DNA of 59,670 nt from Escherichia phage CAjan, in sequence record KP064094; one strand, 5' to 3'. Below, one piece after another: positions 1 to 59,030 of the stretch. Position numbers and translations under genes: made by a program. Each line of letters begins with the position of its first letter. The stretch's first letter is position 1. The notes beneath the pieces are model-generated. The model was given only the letters and a program-made list of their open reading frames with translations. It did not search any database and was not told the DNA's origin.

Positions 1-558
1 ATGAACGGGGCAAGTCAAGAGCAATATGATCGTGACTGGACGAATTACATCCAGTATGCAAATAGCTTGTCCGCTGAAGAGATGGCAATACGTGACAAAG
101 TTGTTGCTGAGTACATGTTCGACTACAATTGGACTAACGCTTGCATGAGATGCGGGTTCAATGCTATGTTTGCACAGGAGCTTGGCCAACGCTTTGCCAC
201 GGACTGTTATGTTCGATGGAAGCTCAAGGAGATTGAAAGATCCCGTGTTCAACGTACTTCTGAGCAAGCTAACATTGAAGCAGACCTTGAGCGTCAGCAT
301 ATCATTGAAGCATTAAAACGTGAAGCTCATTATACAGGACCGGGATCTTCTCAAGCTGCTAGAGTCGCCGCATTGGGCAAGCTTGCACAAATTTATGATT
401 TGGATGCTCCCAAGAAGGCTAAGATTGATGTTACTAACAGAGGCGGCGTAATGATAGTCCCTGCTGTAGCAAATATTGACGAATGGGAAAAAACTGCATC
501 CGAGTCTCAACAACGACTAGTTAAAGAGACTGAAGATGGAGCTAAACCGACAACCTGA
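1..558 (+). CDS. putative terminase small subunit
   Basis: 185-aa ORF beginning with ATG at window position 1, immediately upstream of and overlapping the large terminase gene; assigned by synteny only. Confidence 0.45.
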   Translation: MNGASQEQYDRDWTNYIQYANSLSAEEMAIRDKVVAEYMFDYNWTNACMRCGFNAMFAQELGQRFATDCYVRWKLKEIERSRVQRTSEQANIEADLERQHIIEALKREAHYTGPGSSQAARVAALGKLAQIYDLDAPKKAKIDVTNRGGVMIVPAVANIDEWEKTASESQQRLVKETEDGAKPTT

Positions 559-2095
559 TAACATGCCGCGAGTAGTCTGGAAACCACATCCAGGTTCACA
601 GACACTCGCTCTATCCTGCCCCGCTGATATTATCCTATACCACGGAACTCGCGGTCCTGGAAAAACGGACTGCCAGCTTATGCGTTTCCGTAAGAACGTT
701 GGCGTAGGGTACGGTAAATTTTGGAAGGGTATTATATTCGACCGTGAATATAAAAACCTTGATGACCTTGTAACTAAATCCCAGCGTTGGTTTCCTGAAT
801 TTAAAGACGGGGCTAAATTCCTTAGCTCTAAGTCTGATTATAAATGGGTTTGGCCTACAGGTGAAGAGCTACTGTTCCGCGTTGCTTGTAAAGAAAAGGA
901 TTACTGGTCTTATCACGGTCACGAATACCCATTTATCGGATGGAACGAATTAACAAAATATCCGGACGGGCGTTTGTTTGAAGCTATGATGTCCTGTAAC
1001 CGTTCATCTTTCTTACCAGAAGATAACCCAATTATTAATCCAGATGGTACGGTCACATATTTACCGGATATCCCTCTTGAAGTGTTTGCTACCAGTAACC
1101 CGTTTGGTGCGGGGCATAACTGGGTTAAGAAACGCTTCATTGACGCTGCACCGATGGGTAAAATACTCAGGAAGACTACGAGAGTGTTTAACCCGAGGAC
1201 GCAGAAAGACGAAGATGTGGTTACGACGCAATGCCATATCTTTGGTTCGTACCGTGAAAACAAAAACCTAAGTCCAAAATATATTGCAGAACTTATGTCT
1301 ATCACAGACCCGAACAAGCGTGCTGCATGGTTGGGCGGGAGCTGGGATATTACATCCGGTGGTATGTTCGATGACCTGTGGCGTAGCACTGTTCACAAAG
1401 TACGACCATTCCCGATTCCAGCGAGTTGGAAGATTACACGTTCTTTCGACTGGGGTTCTTCAAAACCGTTTTCTATCGGTTGGTGGGCTATTAGTGATGG
1501 TTCGGATGTTGTGCGTGAAGATGGCACTACATTCTCCACGGTCCGCGGTGACCTGTTTAGGATTAACGAATGGTATGGGACCAACGGTAAAACAAACGAA
1601 GGTCTACATTTGCTGGACTCAGAAATTGCAAGCGGTATACTGGAGCGGGAATTGGCCTGGGGTATACACGATCGTGTAGTTCCTGGTCCTGCGGATAACT
1701 CCATTTGGGATCTGGAGAACAATAACTCCACCGCTGCAACAATGGCGAAGAAAATTCGTCTTAACGGGAAGTTATACAACGGTATACATTGGAAGCGCAG
1801 TGATAAGTCTGCTGGGTCACGTAAACGAGGCTGGCAGAAAATGCGTGAGTTCCTTAAAGCTGCACTGCGGGAAGATGCGAACGGTAAACCTTTGCCCGGT
1901 CCGCGCGAGAATCCGGCAATGTACATTTTTGATAACTGCAACTATTTCTTTGAGCTGGTTCCAAGTCTACCTCGCGATGAAGTGGACCAGGACGACGTTG
2001 ATACGGAATGTGAAGACCATATGGGTGATGAAGTTCGTTATATGGTTCTGGATCAAGCTGTTTATACAGGTGTTGGCAAAACTATCGGTATTTAA
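536..2095 (+). CDS. terL: terminase large subunit
   Basis: 519 aa; N-terminal P-loop-like segment GTRGPGKTD and acidic C-terminal nuclease-like region; sits before the portal gene. Alternative ATG at 563. Confidence 0.8.
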   Translation: MELNRQPDNMPRVVWKPHPGSQTLALSCPADIILYHGTRGPGKTDCQLMRFRKNVGVGYGKFWKGIIFDREYKNLDDLVTKSQRWFPEFKDGAKFLSSKSDYKWVWPTGEELLFRVACKEKDYWSYHGHEYPFIGWNELTKYPDGRLFEAMMSCNRSSFLPEDNPIINPDGTVTYLPDIPLEVFATSNPFGAGHNWVKKRFIDAAPMGKILRKTTRVFNPRTQKDEDVVTTQCHIFGSYRENKNLSPKYIAELMSITDPNKRAAWLGGSWDITSGGMFDDLWRSTVHKVRPFPIPASWKITRSFDWGSSKPFSIGWWAISDGSDVVREDGTTFSTVRGDLFRINEWYGTNGKTNEGLHLLDSEIASGILERELAWGIHDRVVPGPADNSIWDLENNNSTAATMAKKIRLNGKLYNGIHWKRSDKSAGSRKRGWQKMREFLKAALREDANGKPLPGPRENPAMYIFDNCNYFFELVPSLPRDEVDQDDVDTECEDHMGDEVRYMVLDQAVYTGVGKTIGI

Positions 2096-2106: not shown

Positions 2107-3603
2107 ATGGGTATTGATGCAACTCACCCGCTATATGATAAGTGGAAGGATGCATGGGTCAAGTGCAACGACTGCTATGAGGGTGAAGATAAAATTAAGG
2201 AAGAAGGTGTTAAATATCTACCGCCTTTAGCTTCCATGATTATTGATGGGATGAATAATCCTAATGATTTGGGCTTTCAACGTTGGCTCGCTTATCGTCT
2301 GCGTGCTAACTTCCCTGACGATTATTCAAGTGCGGTTACAAACAATTTAGGTCTGCTACACCAGAAGCCTCCTACAATTCAGCTTCCCCCTGAAATGGAA
2401 TACATGCGGGAGCTGTGTACTGCGGACGGTGAAGATATTATTGCTCTGCTACGTCGCATCAACGAAATGCAGTTAAAAAATGGACGTTTGGGGCTGCTGC
2501 TGGACTTGCCGAAAGGTGAGGATGTAAATAACAGACCTTATATTAGCGTTTATGATGCTTTATCCATTATCAACTGGGATGATGGTAAAGATGAATTGGG
2601 TAATATCAACTTGAACATGGTTGTTCTGGATGAAAGCGGCCCTGTACGTGTCAATCAGTTTGACTGGAAAGAAGAGAAGCGTTATCGCGTTCTACAATTA
2701 GGTCCAATGGACACAGATGAAGTTGCAGGTGGGGCGGTCTACTCCCAACATCTGTTTATTAACAATACCAATTATGATGAAGGGCAAATGATTGCTCCTT
2801 ATTATAAAGGTAATACGCTGGATGAAATACCTTTCCAGTTTGTCAATACAACAGATATTACCCCAGCACCGGAAGCGCCTCCATTGTTGGGTCTTGCTAA
2901 CATTTGTCTAAGCATGTACCGAAGTGACGCGGATTACCGCCAATGCTTGCATATGCAGGGTCAGGATACTTTAGTTGTTGTTGGTGGTTCCATGGAAAAT
3001 GGAGATAAATCCCCTCAACGCATCGGACCTGGCGCTGTCATTAACGTTGCTATTGGTGGTGACGCTAAATATGTAGGTCTTAGCGGTGACGGTTTGTCCG
3101 AGCAACGTCTCGCACTGGCAGCGGATAAGCAAGAAGCCCAAATTAAAGCCGGGCAAATGGTAAACAACACCAAGAGCACGCAGGAATCAGGCGAAGCTAT
3201 GAAAACGCGTATTGCTGCGCGTACAGCTAGTTTGATTCGAATTGCGTATACTGGTGCGGCTGGTTTGGAGAACTTGCTGAAGGTTTGCGCTAAGTGGATG
3301 GGTGCGGATCCCGAGAAGGTTGTGGTTAAGCCTAATCTTGAATTTACCAAGAGCATGTTTAACGGTCAGGACTTTGTTCAAATTATTACTGCACGCAACC
3401 TTAAGGCTCCGATTAGCTTGCAGTCTATTCATGGCTGGCTTGTTGATCAGGGCTTAACCACACTAAGCTTTGAAGAAGAAATGGCAATTCTTGAAGAAGA
3501 GCTTAAGAAGTGGCCACTGCCAGATGATGCTAAAGCTGATTTAAACGCAGAGCAGCAAGTAAGCAAAGATCCTAAGGAAGACAACGCTTCCGATAAAGAA
3601 TAG
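2107..3603 (+). CDS. portal protein
   Basis: 498 aa, strong SD (GGAGGG), directly downstream of terminase; size, acidic C-terminus and position typical of portal. Confidence 0.7.
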   Translation: MGIDATHPLYDKWKDAWVKCNDCYEGEDKIKEEGVKYLPPLASMIIDGMNNPNDLGFQRWLAYRLRANFPDDYSSAVTNNLGLLHQKPPTIQLPPEMEYMRELCTADGEDIIALLRRINEMQLKNGRLGLLLDLPKGEDVNNRPYISVYDALSIINWDDGKDELGNINLNMVVLDESGPVRVNQFDWKEEKRYRVLQLGPMDTDEVAGGAVYSQHLFINNTNYDEGQMIAPYYKGNTLDEIPFQFVNTTDITPAPEAPPLLGLANICLSMYRSDADYRQCLHMQGQDTLVVVGGSMENGDKSPQRIGPGAVINVAIGGDAKYVGLSGDGLSEQRLALAADKQEAQIKAGQMVNNTKSTQESGEAMKTRIAARTASLIRIAYTGAAGLENLLKVCAKWMGADPEKVVVKPNLEFTKSMFNGQDFVQIITARNLKAPISLQSIHGWLVDQGLTTLSFEEEMAILEEELKKWPLPDDAKADLNAEQQVSKDPKEDNASDKE

Positions 3604-3698
3604 TTGCAACTTCCAAGTTGATCGGTTTATATTAACGAACACGGGGCTGGGACGGCTCAGCTCCAAAAACGTCACACGGGTGACAACGGAGATAAGAA

Positions 3699-4571
3699 AT
3701 GAAAAAGAGTTCTGTAGCTATTAGTGTTGGTATGGCTTTAATTAATCCACGCGCTCGCGGTGAAGGTGATGTGGAACTGGAATACGAATATGCATCTGCG
3801 GAAGAGATCCCGGCAGAGTTTGCAACTCTTTACGCAGAGCAGGGCGGTAAATACGTTCTTGCAAAAGTTAAAGGTGTAGCCCCTGCTGATAGCGTTCGTC
3901 GTCTGGAAAGTGCGTTAGCTAAAGAACGTAACGACCATCGTCAGGTGAAGCAACAGATTAGCGCACTTGGGCGTCCGGTTGAAGAAGTCCTTGCGGACCT
4001 TGATCGTATCCCTCAACTGGAAGCTGCCGCTAACGGTAAAGGTACTCCGGAAGACATCGAAAAGATGGTTAAAGCCCGTCTTGCTCCGCTTGAGCGTCAA
4101 TTGCAAACTGTAGCAGCTGAACGCGATTCCGTTAAGCAGGAAATTGAAGGCTACCGCACTCGCGAAACTAAAGCGAAGATTAAAGACGCAGTTATTGCTG
4201 CTGCATCCGGTGCTAAGCTGCGTCCGTCTGCTATCGAAGATGCGGTGACTTATGCACAGTTGCAAATGACAGTCGACGAGAACGGCAATGTGGTTACGAA
4301 AGATGGGGCTGGTGTAACTCCATACCTAACCCCGGCGGATTGGCTTAACGAGATCCTCCCGAAACGTCCTCACTGGGTTGAAGGTTCTGCTGGTGGCGGT
4401 GCATCTGGTCCGGGTGCTGGCGGCCATCACGGTGAAGACCCATACAGTCACGACGGTTGGAACATCTCTAAGCAGATGAATCTCTGGAAAACTAATCAAT
4501 CTTTAGCTAAACGCTTAGCTGAAAAGAATGGCGTAGATCCGCTGAAGCCTGTACGTCCTGCTAAGAAATAA
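3699..4571 (+). CDS. putative scaffolding protein
   Basis: 290 aa, charged and coiled-coil-like (many E/K/R/A/Q) with Gly-rich segment; lies between portal and major capsid genes. Confidence 0.5.
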   Translation: MKKSSVAISVGMALINPRARGEGDVELEYEYASAEEIPAEFATLYAEQGGKYVLAKVKGVAPADSVRRLESALAKERNDHRQVKQQISALGRPVEEVLADLDRIPQLEAAANGKGTPEDIEKMVKARLAPLERQLQTVAAERDSVKQEIEGYRTRETKAKIKDAVIAAASGAKLRPSAIEDAVTYAQLQMTVDENGNVVTKDGAGVTPYLTPADWLNEILPKRPHWVEGSAGGGASGPGAGGHHGEDPYSHDGWNISKQMNLWKTNQSLAKRLAEKNGVDPLKPVRPAKK

Positions 4572-6165: not shown

Positions 6166-6819
6166 ATGAAGACATTAATTGAAGCATTGTTAGAACTTGA
6201 TCCGGATAACCCGAATCATTGGACTAGCGACGGTCTACCTAAAGTGGATGCTTTGCGTTTCGCTACCGCTAACCCGTCTTTAACCCGCGACGATATTACA
6301 ACTGCTGCCCCTCTATTCACCCGCGACAACCGCGTGCTGGAAGAGCCTGAGCCTGTGGAACCCGTTAAATCTGCTGATCCAGTTTTACATGAAGCAGTTA
6401 AACAGGAGAAAGCTCATGAAGAACAAAAGAAAGTCGCGGTTGCAACGATGCAAATCGAAGTTAAGATTAGCGAAGCACTGCGTGCTATTCTGGAGCCGGA
6501 AAAAATCGGTGACGCTTCCAGCTTAACCGATGAAGAACTGAAAGCGAAGCGCGAAAAGCTTAGCAATGTGGTTAAAGAGATTGCCCACACTAAGCACGCG
6601 TTGGAGCTCGCTATCGCAGACGTTCAAGCGGATCTGGATAAGATTATCGTTGAGCAGGAGCGTCGTCGTCCTAAGTCCGGTCTTACTGCAACTCAGATGT
6701 ACCTTGAAGCGCAGAAAAAACGTAAACCTGAAGACATGCTTTCTGACCATCGCTTCCAGAACCCTATTGACGATCCGGTCGCCCGTATGGTTGCACGTAA
6801 TATGATGCGTCGAGGTTAA
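6166..6819 (+). CDS. hypothetical head-associated protein
   Basis: 217 aa acidic, helical protein in head module; no recognised motif. Confidence 0.4.
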   Translation: MKTLIEALLELDPDNPNHWTSDGLPKVDALRFATANPSLTRDDITTAAPLFTRDNRVLEEPEPVEPVKSADPVLHEAVKQEKAHEEQKKVAVATMQIEVKISEALRAILEPEKIGDASSLTDEELKAKREKLSNVVKEIAHTKHALELAIADVQADLDKIIVEQERRRPKSGLTATQMYLEAQKKRKPEDMLSDHRFQNPIDDPVARMVARNMMRRG

Positions 6820-6873
6820 CCATGGAAATGAGCCATAGACAATATGTGTTGTGGCTCCTCCGACGTAATAGAA

Positions 6874-6903
6874 AACGGCGTCAAGAAGACGCCGTTTCTG
6901 TTC
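6874..6903 (+). terminator. intrinsic terminator-like hairpin
   Basis: AACGGCGTC-AAGAA-GACGCCGTT perfect 9-bp stem followed by T-rich TCTGTTCC. Confidence 0.45.
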
Positions 6904-6957
6904 CTGAAGAAGAGCTCCCACCGCTTATCCCTACAACCATCGCAATGAGGAAGAAAG

Positions 6958-7464
6958 ATGGAGATTCCACTGATAGTTGAAGATGGTACTGGTGTACCGG
7001 ACGCCAACAGTTATGTCACCATTGAACAAGTCCGCATGTATGCAGCAATGCGAGGTATTGTACTTCCAAGTGAAGACGAAGATCTAAAGACAAAGATCTT
7101 TGACGCTATGGATTTTGTGGAAGGGTACAGCCAACGCTTTAAAGGTTATAAAATTAACCCACAGCAACCGCTAAATTGGCCACGCTACGGGGTGTTTGTG
7201 GACGGGTTCGAGCTACCCCAAAGCCCCTTACCAAAGGCGCTTATAAACGCTGTTTGCCAGCTTACAGCGGACTCAGCTACTGGCGGTCCTCTTAATGGGA
7301 AAACTACTGCATATGCAGTCAAAAGAACTAAAGTAGAAGGTCTTGAGATTGAATATGCAACTGGTAGCACAGCACAGTCAGGTCCAGCAAAAACATATGA
7401 TAAAGCTATGACGTTTTTATCACCTTTGCTGGGTTATCAAATGGGTAATAGATTGATACGGTGA
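6958..7464 (+). CDS. putative head-tail connector/adaptor
   Basis: 168 aa; position after head genes and N-terminal segment resembling gp6-like connector proteins. Confidence 0.45.
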   Translation: MEIPLIVEDGTGVPDANSYVTIEQVRMYAAMRGIVLPSEDEDLKTKIFDAMDFVEGYSQRFKGYKINPQQPLNWPRYGVFVDGFELPQSPLPKALINAVCQLTADSATGGPLNGKTTAYAVKRTKVEGLEIEYATGSTAQSGPAKTYDKAMTFLSPLLGYQMGNRLIR

Positions 7465-55340: not shown

Positions 55341-55532
55341 ATGCATCGACTGACAGATGAGCGTGTTGCTAAGCTTGCGGAATATGACTGTGCAAGCAAT
55401 GACGAAGTTATGTCGTTGGCACAAGAAGTAAAGGAACTTCGTGCTGTAGCAAAGGACTTCCTGCGTCGTAATAAATATGGTCCTTTGTTCTATCGTGATT
55501 TGTATAACCGTTTTAAGGAGATTGTGGAATGA
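55341..55532 (+). CDS. hypothetical protein
   Basis: 63 aa from ATG 55341 (track start 55329 is GTG), SD GGAG. Confidence 0.4.
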   Translation: MHRLTDERVAKLAEYDCASNDEVMSLAQEVKELRAVAKDFLRRNKYGPLFYRDLYNRFKEIVE

Positions 55533-55798
55533 TTACTGCTCAAGAAGCTCGTGAATTAAGCGATAAGCTGGATATTAGCGAAGATATTGAATTTATCAGT
55601 GACAGCATTCGCGTAGCTGCTACAAAGGGATACAATAAAGTATCACTGGTAACCAAATACGGAGCTGTTGGCAATCCTGACACTCAAGACCCGACCACTA
55701 TGAAGATTGCTAAATGGTTATCCGATTCTGGTTTTACGGTGCTATATTATCCTTCCATGGACCAACGTGATAACGAGCGTACTGAGGTAGCATGGTGA
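55529..55798 (+). CDS. hypothetical protein
   Basis: 89-aa ORF with SD AAGGAG. Confidence 0.45.
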   Translation: MITAQEARELSDKLDISEDIEFISDSIRVAATKGYNKVSLVTKYGAVGNPDTQDPTTMKIAKWLSDSGFTVLYYPSMDQRDNERTEVAW

Positions 55799-55865
55799 TT
55801 GAAGAAAATATCAAATATTGGAAAGGCTTTATTGACGAAATGTTGAAACCATTGGAGAAGAAATA

Positions 55866-56258
55866 ATGCTATTAGTCGTCACCGGAGGTCGAGATTTTAA
55901 GCATGTGGAGTATATTTATGCTCAATTGGATAAGCTGCATATGCAAAGAAGGATAACCACACTTCGCCACGGTGACGCTGACGGTGTTGACCGCATTTGC
56001 GCACAGTGGGCAGAGCGCAACGGTATTAAGACAGAAGCGTTCCCTGCCCCGTGGGACAATCTTTCCTTACCAAATACCAAGATACGGTATAACGCCAAGG
56101 GTGCTTATAATGCACAAGCTGGCGCTTACCGCAATCAATTAATGCTGGATACTGATCCTAAACCAGATCACGCTATTGTGTTTCCTGGCGGAGCTGGTAC
56201 TATGGATATGTACAGACGGATTAAAGCATCCGGTATCCCTTACACATTAGCGGAGTAA
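55866..56258 (+). CDS. SLOG/DUF2493-like Rossmann-fold protein (predicted nucleotide-binding)
   Basis: 130 aa with LLVVTGGRDF, GDADGVD and VFPGGAGTMD, resembling LOG/SLOG-family PGGxGTxxE signatures. Confidence 0.45.
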   Translation: MLLVVTGGRDFKHVEYIYAQLDKLHMQRRITTLRHGDADGVDRICAQWAERNGIKTEAFPAPWDNLSLPNTKIRYNAKGAYNAQAGAYRNQLMLDTDPKPDHAIVFPGGAGTMDMYRRIKASGIPYTLAE

Positions 56259-56261
56259 ATA

Positions 56262-56732
56262 ATGGCTGACGTTAAAACTATTGTTGATGCAATGGACGAA
56301 TCCAAAGACTGTCAACTGAAGAAGTCGTTTGAAGTAAAACAGGTTACAGAGACTCAGTTGGTCTGTAATTTTGCGCGTTATTGTGGACTGGGGCGCGGGA
56401 AAGACTGGAACGGGCTTATTGTTATGCCCACATCACAAATCCTCGTTTACGTCCGCAACGTTGTAGAAGATGTTCTGCGTCTTCAGGTTGAAATCGGTGA
56501 CGTAGAAATTAACATGACCGCGAGCTCTACCATTGTGGTTAAATGGCAGTCGGGCGAGACACTGCGTTTGGAAGCGTGCCATTGTGCTAAGAGCCTACAC
56601 CACCTGCGCGGTTGTCATTACCAGTTCGTTGGGTTTGTACATCCGCAAGGGTTAAGCGAGCGTACGGCGCTGGTAGCGCGTTTGCTGCTGCGTCCTTATA
56701 ATAACGAGCCGGAAGTTATATACGAGGCATAA
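56262..56732 (+). CDS. hypothetical protein with Cys/His cluster
   Basis: 156 aa with EACHCAKSLHHLRGCHY, a possible metal-binding site. Confidence 0.45.
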   Translation: MADVKTIVDAMDESKDCQLKKSFEVKQVTETQLVCNFARYCGLGRGKDWNGLIVMPTSQILVYVRNVVEDVLRLQVEIGDVEINMTASSTIVVKWQSGETLRLEACHCAKSLHHLRGCHYQFVGFVHPQGLSERTALVARLLLRPYNNEPEVIYEA

Positions 56733-56733
56733 A

Positions 56734-57159
56734 ATGTCAGTAAATTTTGTCAAACAGCCAACTTTAAATACATGCGTTTCTGCGTGTTTGGCAATGATCC
56801 TTAATAAACCTGTTGAGAAGGTTATTGAGGAATTTCATAGTCGTTATTATAACAACTGGGAAATCACTATCAGCGAATATTTGACTAAAAACGGCGTCCA
56901 GCATCATTGTTCAGAAGGTGGTGGGCGTGAAACTTTGCATATGGGAGGTTTGTTCCTGTGCACGGTGCCAAGTCTTAATATTCCTGGCGCATTGCACCAG
57001 ATTGTGATTGATATGACGGATCACAAGTTTATTGTGCATGATCCAATTAAAGGATGGGAAGGTAAAAAGTTCTATGTTGGTCCGGATCAAGATCCTGAAG
57101 AGCCTGGAGCTTTTATCATTCATACTTGGGTCAAAGACGTTGAAATCCTGCCTTATTAA
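56734..57159 (+). CDS. papain-like cysteine peptidase domain protein (C39-like)
   Basis: 141 aa; N-terminal QPTLNTCVSACLAMIL matches the Q...C...ACLxMI pattern of C39-type peptidases, with downstream His (HQIVIDMTDHKFIVHD). Confidence 0.4.
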   Translation: MSVNFVKQPTLNTCVSACLAMILNKPVEKVIEEFHSRYYNNWEITISEYLTKNGVQHHCSEGGGRETLHMGGLFLCTVPSLNIPGALHQIVIDMTDHKFIVHDPIKGWEGKKFYVGPDQDPEEPGAFIIHTWVKDVEILPY

Positions 57160-57221
57160 TTTTCTTGCTATCACATAACCCTTCATTGTATTGTGTACCC
57201 ATCGAATAAGAGGGGTACACA

Positions 57222-57407
57222 ATGACCAAACTATACGCCGGATTGTTTTTATTTGCGACGTTGATGTTCGCTGGGCTTTATACCTATACAGTAGTCGAAC
57301 AACCTTCCACGGTTATCCGAATCTTTGCAAGTACAGGGCTTTGCATCTGTCTTATTCTATTTGTTTTATGCATTGTTATTATCCAAGACCAAAGGAAAGT
57401 TAAATGA
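57222..57407 (+). CDS. small membrane protein
   Basis: 61 aa with two hydrophobic helices; SD AGAGGGG lies within an inverted repeat. Confidence 0.4.
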   Translation: MTKLYAGLFLFATLMFAGLYTYTVVEQPSTVIRIFASTGLCICLILFVLCIVIIQDQRKVK

Positions 57408-57868
57408 CCACAATTGCGTTTGATGGAAAAGTATTAGCTGCGGACCGTGGAGTTATGCGCGGGGAAGCTGTGACTGCTTATAAGAAAGTTCATAGCGTGA
57501 ATGGACATCGTGGACGGTTTTTACTGGGCTTGTGCGGCCTTACAGCATTTACCGATCAGGTGTTGCGTTATTTTAATAGCGCGGAACCTGTTAAGTTCCC
57601 TGATATTAAACTTTACAGCAAAGATGATGATTACGGGCAAACTTGCGGTCTTGCTGTCACTCCGGAAGGTACTTGCCATTTTATTTATAATGATGGTACT
57701 TTGAGCGAGCCCATGCTGGATGGATGGGGATCTGAGGGTAGCGGTTGTGTGTTTGCTGCTGGGGCGTTAGCTGCTGGTGCAAGTGCGAGCGAAGCTATTG
57801 AGTTGGCAATTAAACACACCACATGCGCATTCCTGGGAGTTGATACAATATCATTTGAGGGTTTTTAA
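57404..57868 (+). CDS. HslV/proteasome beta-subunit-like Ntn hydrolase
   Basis: 154 aa starting MTTIAFDGK (Thr directly after Met, as in HslV MTTIVSV); GSEGSGCVFAAGALAAGASASEAIELA parallels HslV GSGGPYAQAAARALLEN. Confidence 0.5.
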   Translation: MTTIAFDGKVLAADRGVMRGEAVTAYKKVHSVNGHRGRFLLGLCGLTAFTDQVLRYFNSAEPVKFPDIKLYSKDDDYGQTCGLAVTPEGTCHFIYNDGTLSEPMLDGWGSEGSGCVFAAGALAAGASASEAIELAIKHTTCAFLGVDTISFEGF

Positions 57869-58129
57869 ATGACTACATTCAGTCACCTGATCCCACCTGC
57901 TTATCATAGTAAGGTAGTTGACCACGGGACGCATGTTGTAATTGGTGGCGAAATCTTTATCACAGATAACGAGGAAATCGCCATTGCAATTATTGACAGC
58001 ACTCAGCATGACTTTATGGTTATCCTGCAACACGAACCAGATAACTTCACTTTTTACTCCAGCTACGGGGTCGATAAAGGTGGAAAAAGTCTTGTTGCTT
58101 TCTACATTAACGACTGGTTTGACGGGTAA
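57869..58129 (+). CDS. hypothetical protein
   Basis: 86-aa ORF with SD GAGGG. Confidence 0.4.
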   Translation: MTTFSHLIPPAYHSKVVDHGTHVVIGGEIFITDNEEIAIAIIDSTQHDFMVILQHEPDNFTFYSSYGVDKGGKSLVAFYINDWFDG

Positions 58130-58211
58130 TCTCCTTAGATCAATTCTCCTTGCGCCGTATCAAGTTTCTCTGTTACCCTTGAGTGGTTCATGTCAAGCGG
58201 AGGAACTCGAT

Positions 58212-58649
58212 ATGGCACTTCAACCTCGTGGTATTCGTAATAACAATCCAGGCAATATTCGCTGGGGTGATAATTGGCAGGGCTTAGTTCCTGTTGATAA
58301 GCGAACCGATAAATCTTTTGCGCAATTCACGCAACCGATTTACGGCATTCGTGCACTAGCGAAAATCCTGACAAACTACACCAAACGTGAAGGCTTACCC
58401 AATGTGGGTAAGAAAAACATCGACACTGTACGTGAAATCATCGCTCGCTGGGCACCGCCTAACGAAAACGATACGGAAGCGTATATTCGCTCTGTTGCCA
58501 AAGCAATTGGTGTTCAACCTAACGATCCGATTAATGTCTTCGACAAGGCAATTATGTCAGGATTGGTGAAAGCAATCATTCGTCATGAAAATGGCATGAT
58601 GCCCTATACCGATGACGTAATTAACCGCGCTATTGCAATGGTACTTTAA
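58212..58649 (+). CDS. hypothetical protein, candidate endolysin by position
   Basis: 146 aa from ATG 58212 (SD GGAGGA); immediately upstream of holin and spanin genes; no catalytic motif recognised, function inferred from synteny only. Confidence 0.35.
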   Translation: MALQPRGIRNNNPGNIRWGDNWQGLVPVDKRTDKSFAQFTQPIYGIRALAKILTNYTKREGLPNVGKKNIDTVREIIARWAPPNENDTEAYIRSVAKAIGVQPNDPINVFDKAIMSGLVKAIIRHENGMMPYTDDVINRAIAMVL

Positions 58650-58654
58650 CTGAC

Positions 58655-58676
58655 GGGGCGTTAGCCCCTTTTATTT
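58655..58676 (+). terminator. intrinsic terminator-like hairpin between endolysin candidate and holin
   Basis: GGGGC-GTTA-GCCCC followed by TTTTATTT. Confidence 0.45.
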
Positions 58677-58685
58677 GGAGGGAAC

Positions 58686-59030
58686 ATGTTCAATTCACCC
58701 AACGAACATTGGGCAGTTCTAGCGGGGTTTGCGTTTATTTCCCTCATTGGGGGAGCTCTCGGTTATGTCATGCGTACAATAGACGCTGGTAAGAAAGTAC
58801 GGGCAAGCATTGCATTTCTTGAAGGCTTATCCGCCGCTTTCTTTGGCGTTATAATGTATGCGATCTACAGGGAGTTTAACATCAGCCTTTGGTTCGCTTT
58901 TGGCCTTGCTGGCCTATTTGCTTGGGCAGGTTCACGTGCTACGCTAAAAGCCCTAACGACGCTTATAGCTTCACGGACAGGGATCAAACTCGATTCAGGG
59001 GACTGCAAACATGAAAACGATTCTAAATAA
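58686..59030 (+). CDS. holin (class I-like, three transmembrane segments)
   Basis: 114 aa with three hydrophobic helices and charged C-terminus; directly upstream of spanin genes. Confidence 0.55.
   Translation: MFNSPNEHWAVLAGFAFISLIGGALGYVMRTIDAGKKVRASIAFLEGLSAAFFGVIMYAIYREFNISLWFAFGLAGLFAWAGSRATLKALTTLIASRTGIKLDSGDCKHENDSK

Follow-up and report, generated by a model that had tools for sequence, protein, structure and literature searches.

Two putative cytoplasmic proteases, a SLOG protein and a terminase fragment paralogue in the accessory block of the Seuratvirus phage CAjan

PPH is a family of proteasome homologues reported in 2021 (PMC8665760) from tailed phages and prophages; its members have about 140 residues, no propeptide, conserved Thr, Asp, Lys and Gly residues and no helix H2. 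Viral YpsA-like, or YAcAr, proteins of the SLOG family are predicted to sense or cleave immune signals derived from ADP-ribose (PMC7824862, PMC9503650). C39 enzymes proper are double-glycine leader peptidases, and according to a 2026 preprint GyrB and ParE are inactivated by StbD-CT, a toxin of the C39 family, through a cut at a Gly-Gly motif. Genes for proteins that resemble each of these lie close together at positions 55866-57868 of the Escherichia phage CAjan sequence (record KP064094), and it is this region that is analysed here. The window, by which we mean the whole stretch of 59,670 bases, is a complete Seuratvirus (Queuovirinae) genome with its map begun at the small terminase gene. 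An earlier note, made from the DNA letters, had singled out four adjacent plus-strand genes in the region and had proposed that they form a host-takeover or anti-defence module. The four open reading frames and the peptides that the note quoted from them are all present in the list of open reading frames, and are as follows.

55866-56258, plus strand: SLOG protein of the YAcAr family (DUF2493), 130 residues; Pfam PF10686, phrog_289
56262-56732, plus strand: the note's 'Cys/His protein', 156 residues, best described as a paralogue of a segment of the terminase large subunit (TerL); BLASTP and hhalign against TerL
56734-57159, plus strand: predicted stand-alone C39-like, papain-fold cysteine peptidase, 141 residues; phrog_4049
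57404-57868, plus strand: PPH-type proteasome homologue (HslV-like N-terminal-nucleophile Thr hydrolase), 154 residues; phrog_1040, E = 5.4e-32

We conclude, with a probability of roughly 0.6, that the region forms the distal stretch of the rightward accessory block of Seuratvirus and that it holds accessory enzymes that have spread independently, rather than one dedicated system. As judged from sequences and structural models, the most likely reading is that two of the products are site-specific cytoplasmic proteases and that a third is a nucleotide sensor. The targets could be host proteins, attacked in the course of takeover or counter-defence, or they could equally be late proteins of the phage.

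The parallel with HslV that the earlier note drew from an N-terminal Thr and a Gly-rich segment has held up well. In the protein encoded at 57404-57868 (MTTIAFDGK...), Thr follows directly upon the initiator Met with no propeptide, and the Gly-rich segment is GSEGSG, at residues 109-114. Twenty-one homologues were recovered, and in their alignment M1, T2, D14, G45, G112 and G114 are invariant, while K28 is kept in at least 90% of the sequences. When a profile of this alignment was compared with the PDB, HslV was the first match (2.5e-9), followed by proteasome β subunits and BPH, and D14, K28 and G-x-x-G45 aligned with D17, K33 and G45-x-x-G48 of HslV. An AlphaFold2 model of the protein (pLDDT 95.6, pTM 0.90) was matched by Foldseek to HslV, β5 and BPH at a probability of 1.0, with TM scores of about 0.6-0.66. 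The model has a single helix after the first sheet; helices are found only at residues 47-58, 115-123 and 128-138, and residues 59-79 are non-helical, which means that H2 is missing. Because the catalytic set is kept and H2 is missing, we place this HslV-fold protein in the PPH type. Set against the published description, its sequence and model match that family, the shared features being a length of about 140-150 residues, the oxyanion Gly, the sandwich fold of proteasome-beta and HslV, and occurrence in tailed phages and prophages of Proteobacteria.

HslV (ClpQ) itself is the best PDB match by profile and by fold (TM score about 0.66), and the two proteins align at the MTTI... N-terminus, at the catalytic residues and in the GSG segment, but the window protein is some 20 residues shorter and is without H2. 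It is not HslV proper, since it falls below the Pfam cut-off, gave no match in an NCBIfam search, lacks H2 and has no neighbouring HslU gene; nor is an HslU-like AAA+ partner annotated in the closely related KS_A8 genome. As in E. coli HslV, which also begins MTTI..., the host methionine aminopeptidase would remove Met1 and so expose Thr1. As to substrates and timing, the protein would most likely act as an N-terminal-nucleophile (Thr1) protease on a limited set of proteins late in infection. It would probably be oligomeric and may form a ring, and since H2 is missing it need not be driven by HslU. The family had thus already been described, and in the literature searched we found no later experimental study of it.

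The product of 56734-57159 was called a C39-type cysteine peptidase in the earlier note on the basis of QPTLNTCVSACLAMIL, at residues 8-23. From sequence alone this assignment is weak: sub-threshold C39 matches were obtained for eight of ten relatives, the best with E 0.005, and comparison of profiles with the PDB returned nothing significant and no C39 chain. The AlphaFold2 model (pLDDT 90.2), in which Cys14 stands at the start of a helix, is a papain-like fold closest to C39 domains, and its best structural matches are cytoplasmic double-glycine peptidases. Structure prediction was the check that the note had itself suggested, and the models of this protein and of the HslV-like one both land in the folds that it had anticipated. 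We aligned 14 members of the family, drawn from Seuratvirus, Nonagvirus, Providencia, Ackermannviridae, Pseudomonas and Vibrio phages and 24-79% identical to the window protein. The residues Q8, C14, C18, A20, M21, S80, H88, D103 and P104 are invariant, and the invariant polar residues are limited to Q8, C14, C18, S80, H88 and D103 (with P104 beside it). Among these residues are, in the C39 order, the oxyanion Gln, the Cys nucleophile, the His and the Asp-Pro that C39 enzymes have. Because of the fold model and the invariant Gln, Cys, His and Asp-Pro, we regard the protein as a putative active peptidase of clan CA with a C39-like mode of action.

It departs from C39 proper in two respects, namely the curated sequence threshold, which it does not reach, and the context of a transporter and leader peptide. 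Unlike the C39 domains of PCAT1, ComA and LahT and the toxin StbD-CT, it stands alone at 141 residues with no fusion to an ABC transporter or to toxin-delivery elements. There is no sign of a leader-peptide substrate or of an immunity gene, sequence profiles miss the structures of these four proteins, and no ABC transporter is annotated in the related KS_A8 genome. By analogy with C39 enzymes, the protein would most likely act as an endoprotease that cuts cytoplasmic proteins in a sequence-specific manner, plausibly after small residues or Gly-Gly motifs. Its homologues are found next to different genes in different phages, and in four settings they occur without PPH: between the genes for topoisomerase II subunits in Ackermannviridae, surrounded by small genes in Pseudomonas Samunavirus, by a helicase region in Vibrio VP2-like phages and adjoining a resolvase gene in a Vibrio Queuovirinae phage. 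The first of these is exemplified by gp10 of Shigella phage Gloob (Ackermannviridae; 3393-3920 of the locus), which lies between the genes for the large and medium topoisomerase II subunits. Taken with the targets of StbD-CT, neighbourhoods of the Gloob type may offer a lead to a substrate, and may also be coincidence. The family is catalogued as phrog_4049, and we found no discussion of it in the literature searched.

The first gene, 55866-56258, had been called SLOG-like from the peptide VFPGGAGTMD, and this call is well founded. The protein matches Pfam PF10686 ('YspA, cpYpsA-related SLOG family', or YAcAr) with E = 2.1e-18 and 66.3 bits against a cut-off of 28.2, and phrog_289 with E = 1.8e-23, and the quoted peptide (residues 105-114) is a true SLOG motif. 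The Pfam search gave no match to the LOG family. In an alignment with two homologues, each 36% identical to it, the V-x-GGR Gly loop, G-x-A-x-G-x-D, AG-x2-RN and FPGG-x-GT are all kept, the invariant residues including V5-x-G7-G8-R9, G36-x-A38-x-G40-x-D42 and F106-P107-G108-G109-x-G111-T112. The Gly-rich loop after strand 1, G-x-A-x-G-x-D and PGG-x-GT are what it has in common with the YAcAr family (PF10686/DUF2493) and its relatives DprA, YpsA and LOG. Like the window protein, many phage SLOG proteins stand alone at about 125 residues; it differs from both aligned homologues in an insertion of 15 residues (about residues 66-80), and from other viral SLOGs in having no fusion to a Macro, NADAR or helicase domain. 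Homologues go by names that range from 'DprA-like' to 'GTP-binding' in their records.

Most likely the SLOG protein binds a ligand of nucleotide type or processes one, and a signal derived from ADP-ribose and DNA would both be candidates. DUF2493 is elsewhere fused to helicases (ICP1 HelB), and its neighbours in other genomes include polymerase and Cas4 exonuclease genes; because of these fusions and neighbours, a role linked to DNA is equally allowed.

The remaining protein of the four, encoded at 56262-56732, was named in the earlier note for its Cys and His residues. A k-mer-seeded search yielded 16 close relatives, encoded in genomes about 60 kb long, and among these the label stands, for C41, C106, C108, H114 and H127 are invariant; it fails for the divergent homologue of Hafnia phage yong3, which keeps only H107-C108. 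An exhaustive HMMER scan of 1.84 billion representative proteins returned the family's own two clusters only, and its profile had no significant match in the PDB. Two candidate identities were rejected: a conserved zinc or other metal site, in view of the yong3 homologue, and a degenerate papain-like or proteasome-like protein, for which the hhalign probability was 0.1%.

The relationship that did emerge was to the phage's own TerL. BLASTP aligned residues 29-125 with TerL 44-136 at 27% identity over 97 residues (E = 7e-5), and when all 443 six-frame open reading frames of the window were searched, TerL was the top non-self match (E = 0.007, the next being 1.1). In hhalign the family matched TerL with a probability of 81%, which became 93.4% (E = 2.4e-7, 95 columns, TerL about 44-138) when the yong3 homologue was added and three TerLs were used; in 40 control runs, made with small phage proteins that are unrelated, E was never below 0.03. 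The two proteins share colinear blocks at matching spacing: F-x4-G-x-G-x-GK-x-W-x-G-[LI]-I, W-x-[ST]-GE-x-L and G-x2-Y-x-F-[VI]-G. Residues 29-126 are colinear with residues 44-137 of the TerL ATPase domain, the alignment opening right after the TerL Walker A motif (GTRGPGKT, residues 37-44) and closing at the Walker B strand. The protein has neither Walker A nor Walker B, the sequence FVGFVHP standing where TerL has FIGWNE, so that the acidic residues are replaced, and at 156 residues in total it has no nuclease domain. Because of the homology to TerL, the absence of Walker A and the replacement of the acidic Walker B residues, these sequences are best described as those of a TerL paralogue that covers part of the ATPase domain and is catalytically dead. 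The gene probably arose by partial duplication of the TerL gene within Seuratvirus. In Nonagvirus, Klebsiella and Providencia phages, nothing resembling TerL was found upstream of the C39-like gene. The product would most likely act by mimicry of TerL in protein-protein contacts. As far as the literature searched shows, it is undescribed, and we regard it as a modest new observation.

How these genes are distributed decides whether they belong together. By tblastn over 50,697 phage records, the SLOG family was found in 798 records (Ackermannviridae, mycobacteriophages and Klebsiella and Vibrio phages among them), the C39-like gene in 195 records and PPH in 58. In the HMMER scan the family of the TerL fragment was confined to Seuratvirus, and the four-gene arrangement is likewise restricted to that genus. 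Because the component distributions differ so widely, we find no support for the earlier note's view of the four genes as one module, in which the SLOG protein would remove nucleotide immune signals, by destroying or sequestering them, and host proteins with defence or housekeeping tasks would be broken down by the proteases. We consider that view unlikely, although of the alternatives to independent spread it fares best. The genes are adjacent, tightly spaced and in the same orientation, and in Providencia phage PSTCR7 the SLOG, C39-like and PPH genes are contiguous, as confirmed with hidden Markov models. In a metagenomic phage contig (2304-3351) a protein with an Acb2/Tad1 hairpin domain, Acb2/Tad1 being an immune-signal sponge family, is encoded two genes upstream of a distant PPH. 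The predicted action of viral YpsA-like SLOGs on ADP-ribose-derived immune signals (PMC9503650) points the same way. Against this, Nonagvirus and yong3 keep the C39-like and PPH genes with no SLOG gene in the locus examined, the helicase fusions and replication-gene neighbours of DUF2493 suggest roles related to DNA, and PADLOC, which models defence and not anti-defence proteins, gave no match. Of 80 PPH loci in IMG/VR, 77 have neither partner nearby; a C39-like neighbour was present in two, both from Seuratvirus, and a SLOG neighbour in one other.

The two proteases do occur side by side more widely than the set of four. The C39-like gene lies just upstream of PPH in Seuratvirus, in Hafnia phage yong3, in Nonagvirus (JenK1, JenP1, BRET, HdK1, FritzHoffmann and SE1Kor), in Klebsiella phages vB_Kpn2-P2 and K9PH25C2 and in Providencia phages PSTCR4 and PSTCR7. 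The phages that carry the pair are related, the TerL of PSTCR7 being 73% identical to that of the window, and because of this relationship inherited synteny explains the pairing equally well. PSTCR7 is a Craquatrovirus, whose record does not assign it to Queuovirinae. The 73% identity to Seuratvirus was found in the N-terminal region of its TerL (6211-7432 of the locus), and this sequence indicates that the two are closely related in the packaging module at least. A general pairing of the C39-like protein with PPH was considered and rejected, on the two in 80 IMG/VR loci and on Ralstonia phage YL1, which has PPH without the C39-like peptidase. A close alignment of the C39-like family recovered just five loci from IMG/VR.

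Several points weigh against reading these genes as independently spread, enzymatically active accessories. The order of C39-like gene followed by PPH is kept at protein identities of 26-38% across Seuratvirus, Nonagvirus, Klebsiella phages and the Providencia Craquatrovirus, and the two proteases may co-operate in enterobacterial Queuovirinae. Neither protease reaches its curated Pfam threshold: PPH scores 15.4 bits with PF00227 against a cut-off of 22.4, and the C39-like protein 14.3 bits with PF03412 against 22, over residues 3-25 only. Single-sequence searches of the PDB with the four proteins gave nothing useful, NCBIfam yielded no meaningful match, and a search of the literature on phage HslV and PPH, DUF2493, phage C39 peptidases and Seuratvirus proteases turned up no specific experimental work. 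The transcription unit, finally, is one that we infer solely from consensus scans, in which the numbers of promoter and terminator matches were not above those in shuffled controls.

A different context for PPH was suggested by the IMG/VR loci, which fall into 63 groups at 80% identity. The commonest neighbour families are two kinds of terminase large subunit, portals of the P22 and DUF4055 types and the small terminase. Downstream sequence of 2.5 kb or more is available for 56 lineage groups; in 23 of these a TerL or portal gene begins within 2.5 kb downstream of PPH, often only a few bases away, and look-ups of single loci likewise placed PPH just upstream of TerL or portal genes. For a random gene in a phage of 45-60 kb the chance expectation is, by a rough estimate, well under 10%. 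The position of PPH fits late expression and could reflect a role linked to packaging. This recurrent siting, which is unmentioned in the published description of PPH, is a modest new observation.

One might suppose that PPH works in packaging or virion morphogenesis, possibly together with the C39-like protein and the TerL fragment; it would, for example, process terminase, scaffold or head proteins or promote their turnover. The window itself fits such a role: PPH lies about 1.8 kb upstream of TerS with only the 86-residue gene described below and the lysis cassette between them, the neighbouring Cys/His gene is a probable TerL paralogue, and the KS_A8 annotation has a scaffold gene and no prohead protease. 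The stretch ahead of the terminase genes is, however, a well-known insertion site for accessory genes in lambdoid phages, and NinB and DUF1064 genes are close by in several of the PPH loci, so that the siting could merely reflect this habit of insertion. PPH is, moreover, patchily distributed, with no tblastn match at E of 1e-3 or below in Pantoea phage Vid5 or Vibrio phage BP15, although both have the C39-like gene. The virion proteome of Vid5 names none of these proteins (PMC6266253). On balance we think a role in packaging or morphogenesis improbable, and prefer the reading of PPH as an accessory protease that has spread on its own.

We hold it still less probable that the TerL-fragment paralogue is a decoy or modulator of host sensors that recognise TerL (Avs-type, NLR-like), or else a regulator of terminase assembly. 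What recommends the idea is the homology to TerL 44-138 with the catalytic motifs lost, the confinement of the gene to Seuratvirus and the report that KpAvs2 recognises the large terminase of Seuratvirus (PMC11564622). In that same study, however, Seuratvirus phages that carry the Cys/His gene are still restricted by KpAvs2 (PMC11564622). In addition, the fragment corresponds to no obviously complete folding unit of the ATPase domain, and the homology is based on about 27% identity. A combination of this idea with the proteases can also be imagined, and we would give it slimmer odds again: a terminase-centred unit for counter-immunity or control, in which the dead mimic of the TerL ATPase and the two proteases would shield terminase from Avs, destroy the sensors or regulate the turnover of terminase late in infection. 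If true, a viral proteasome homologue would for the first time have a function assigned to it.

The C39-like protein is distinct from the endolysin, an identity that the earlier note had named as a possible refutation. Least probable of all is that it helps to break down the cell wall, as an auxiliary endopeptidase directed at the stem peptides of peptidoglycan, since the phage has a full set of endolysin, holin and spanin, homologues elsewhere lie among replication and early genes distant from lysis genes, the best structural matches are cytoplasmic, and no transmembrane segment was evident by eye in the sequence, a signal-peptide predictor not having been used.

Independently spread accessory enzymes thus remain the preferred reading, and it overturns nothing in current understanding; phage YAcAr SLOGs and PPH are both published families. 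Its interest lies elsewhere. PPH is the sole protease of the proteasome family that is regarded as truly viral, and members with an intact active site occur in BASEL E. coli K-12 phages such as GottfriedDienst, SeppeHuegi and KurtStettler, so that direct genetics is feasible; the practical value of the locus is that it offers such a homologue in tractable phages. In the stand-alone phage C39-like family, present in 195 phage genomes, the catalytic site is invariant although no role has been assigned to the proteins. The TerL-fragment paralogue is of interest given that Avs sensors recognise the TerL of Seuratvirus.

The other features that bear on the locus are these.

1-558: TerS, small terminase subunit
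536-2095, plus strand: TerL, terminase large subunit; Pfam Terminase_6N, with the Walker A motif noted above
57222-57407, plus strand: predicted protein of 61 residues with two transmembrane segments, from the list of open reading frames; phrog_22841, E = 4.6e-45, unknown function
57869-58129, plus strand: protein of 86 residues and unknown function, directly downstream of PPH; phrog_23528
58212-58649, plus strand: endolysin, final gene before a predicted terminator; phrog_873, E = 6.3e-63, and endolysin in the Seurat annotation
58655-58668, plus strand: intrinsic-terminator-like hairpin GGGGCGTTAGCCCC followed by a run of T, just past the endolysin gene; consensus scan

The region 55500-58700 is 97-98.5% identical to the corresponding DNA of the E. 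coli phages SLUR25, KS_A8, SeppeHuegi and Seurat. The record of KS_A8 shows the usual Seuratvirus layout, with the 7-deazaguanine genes DpdA, FolE, QueD, QueC and QueE on the minus strand. In the window the four genes lie within a rightward run of small genes that begins near 52.65 kb. The hairpin at 58655-58668 is the same element that carries a terminator annotation in phage Seurat (KM236243); after it come the holin and spanin genes, and the map then wraps round to the terminase genes, the order at the start of the window being TerS, TerL, portal and scaffold. The lysis cassette of endolysin, holin and spanin is complete without the accessory genes. All six small proteins, from the SLOG protein to that of 86 residues, belong to PHROG families, of which only phrog_289 ('GTP-binding domain') and phrog_1040 ('peptidase HslV family') are named.

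The 61-residue reading frame is a fifth within the span and was overlooked by the earlier note. Its product has two hydrophobic segments, and its stop codon overlaps the start ATG of PPH. In yong3 a gene of equal size and position is present, with no detectable sequence similarity. The 86-residue protein begins, as PPH does, with MTT..., and has homologues directly downstream of PPH in yong3 (1.2e-18) and in vB_Kpn2-P2 (3.8e-6), so it may be a more faithful companion of PPH than either the SLOG or the Cys/His gene.

The start of the endolysin gene is given inconsistently among relatives, the coding sequence having 438 nt in Seurat and 642 nt in KS_A8; in the window there is a long TTG-initiated reading frame from 57942 as well as the ATG at 58212, which is the start chosen for Seurat. 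In the record of Escherichia phage CSP1C (PQ202980.1; 3367-6985 of the locus) the product names appear to be displaced by one gene: 'DprA' is attached to the Cys/His gene, 'cysteine protease' to the 61-residue gene, 'HslV' to the 86-residue gene, 'endolysin' to the holin and 'holin' to the spanin. When that record is read with a shift of one gene, the label that falls to the Cys/His protein is 'T3SS chaperone'.

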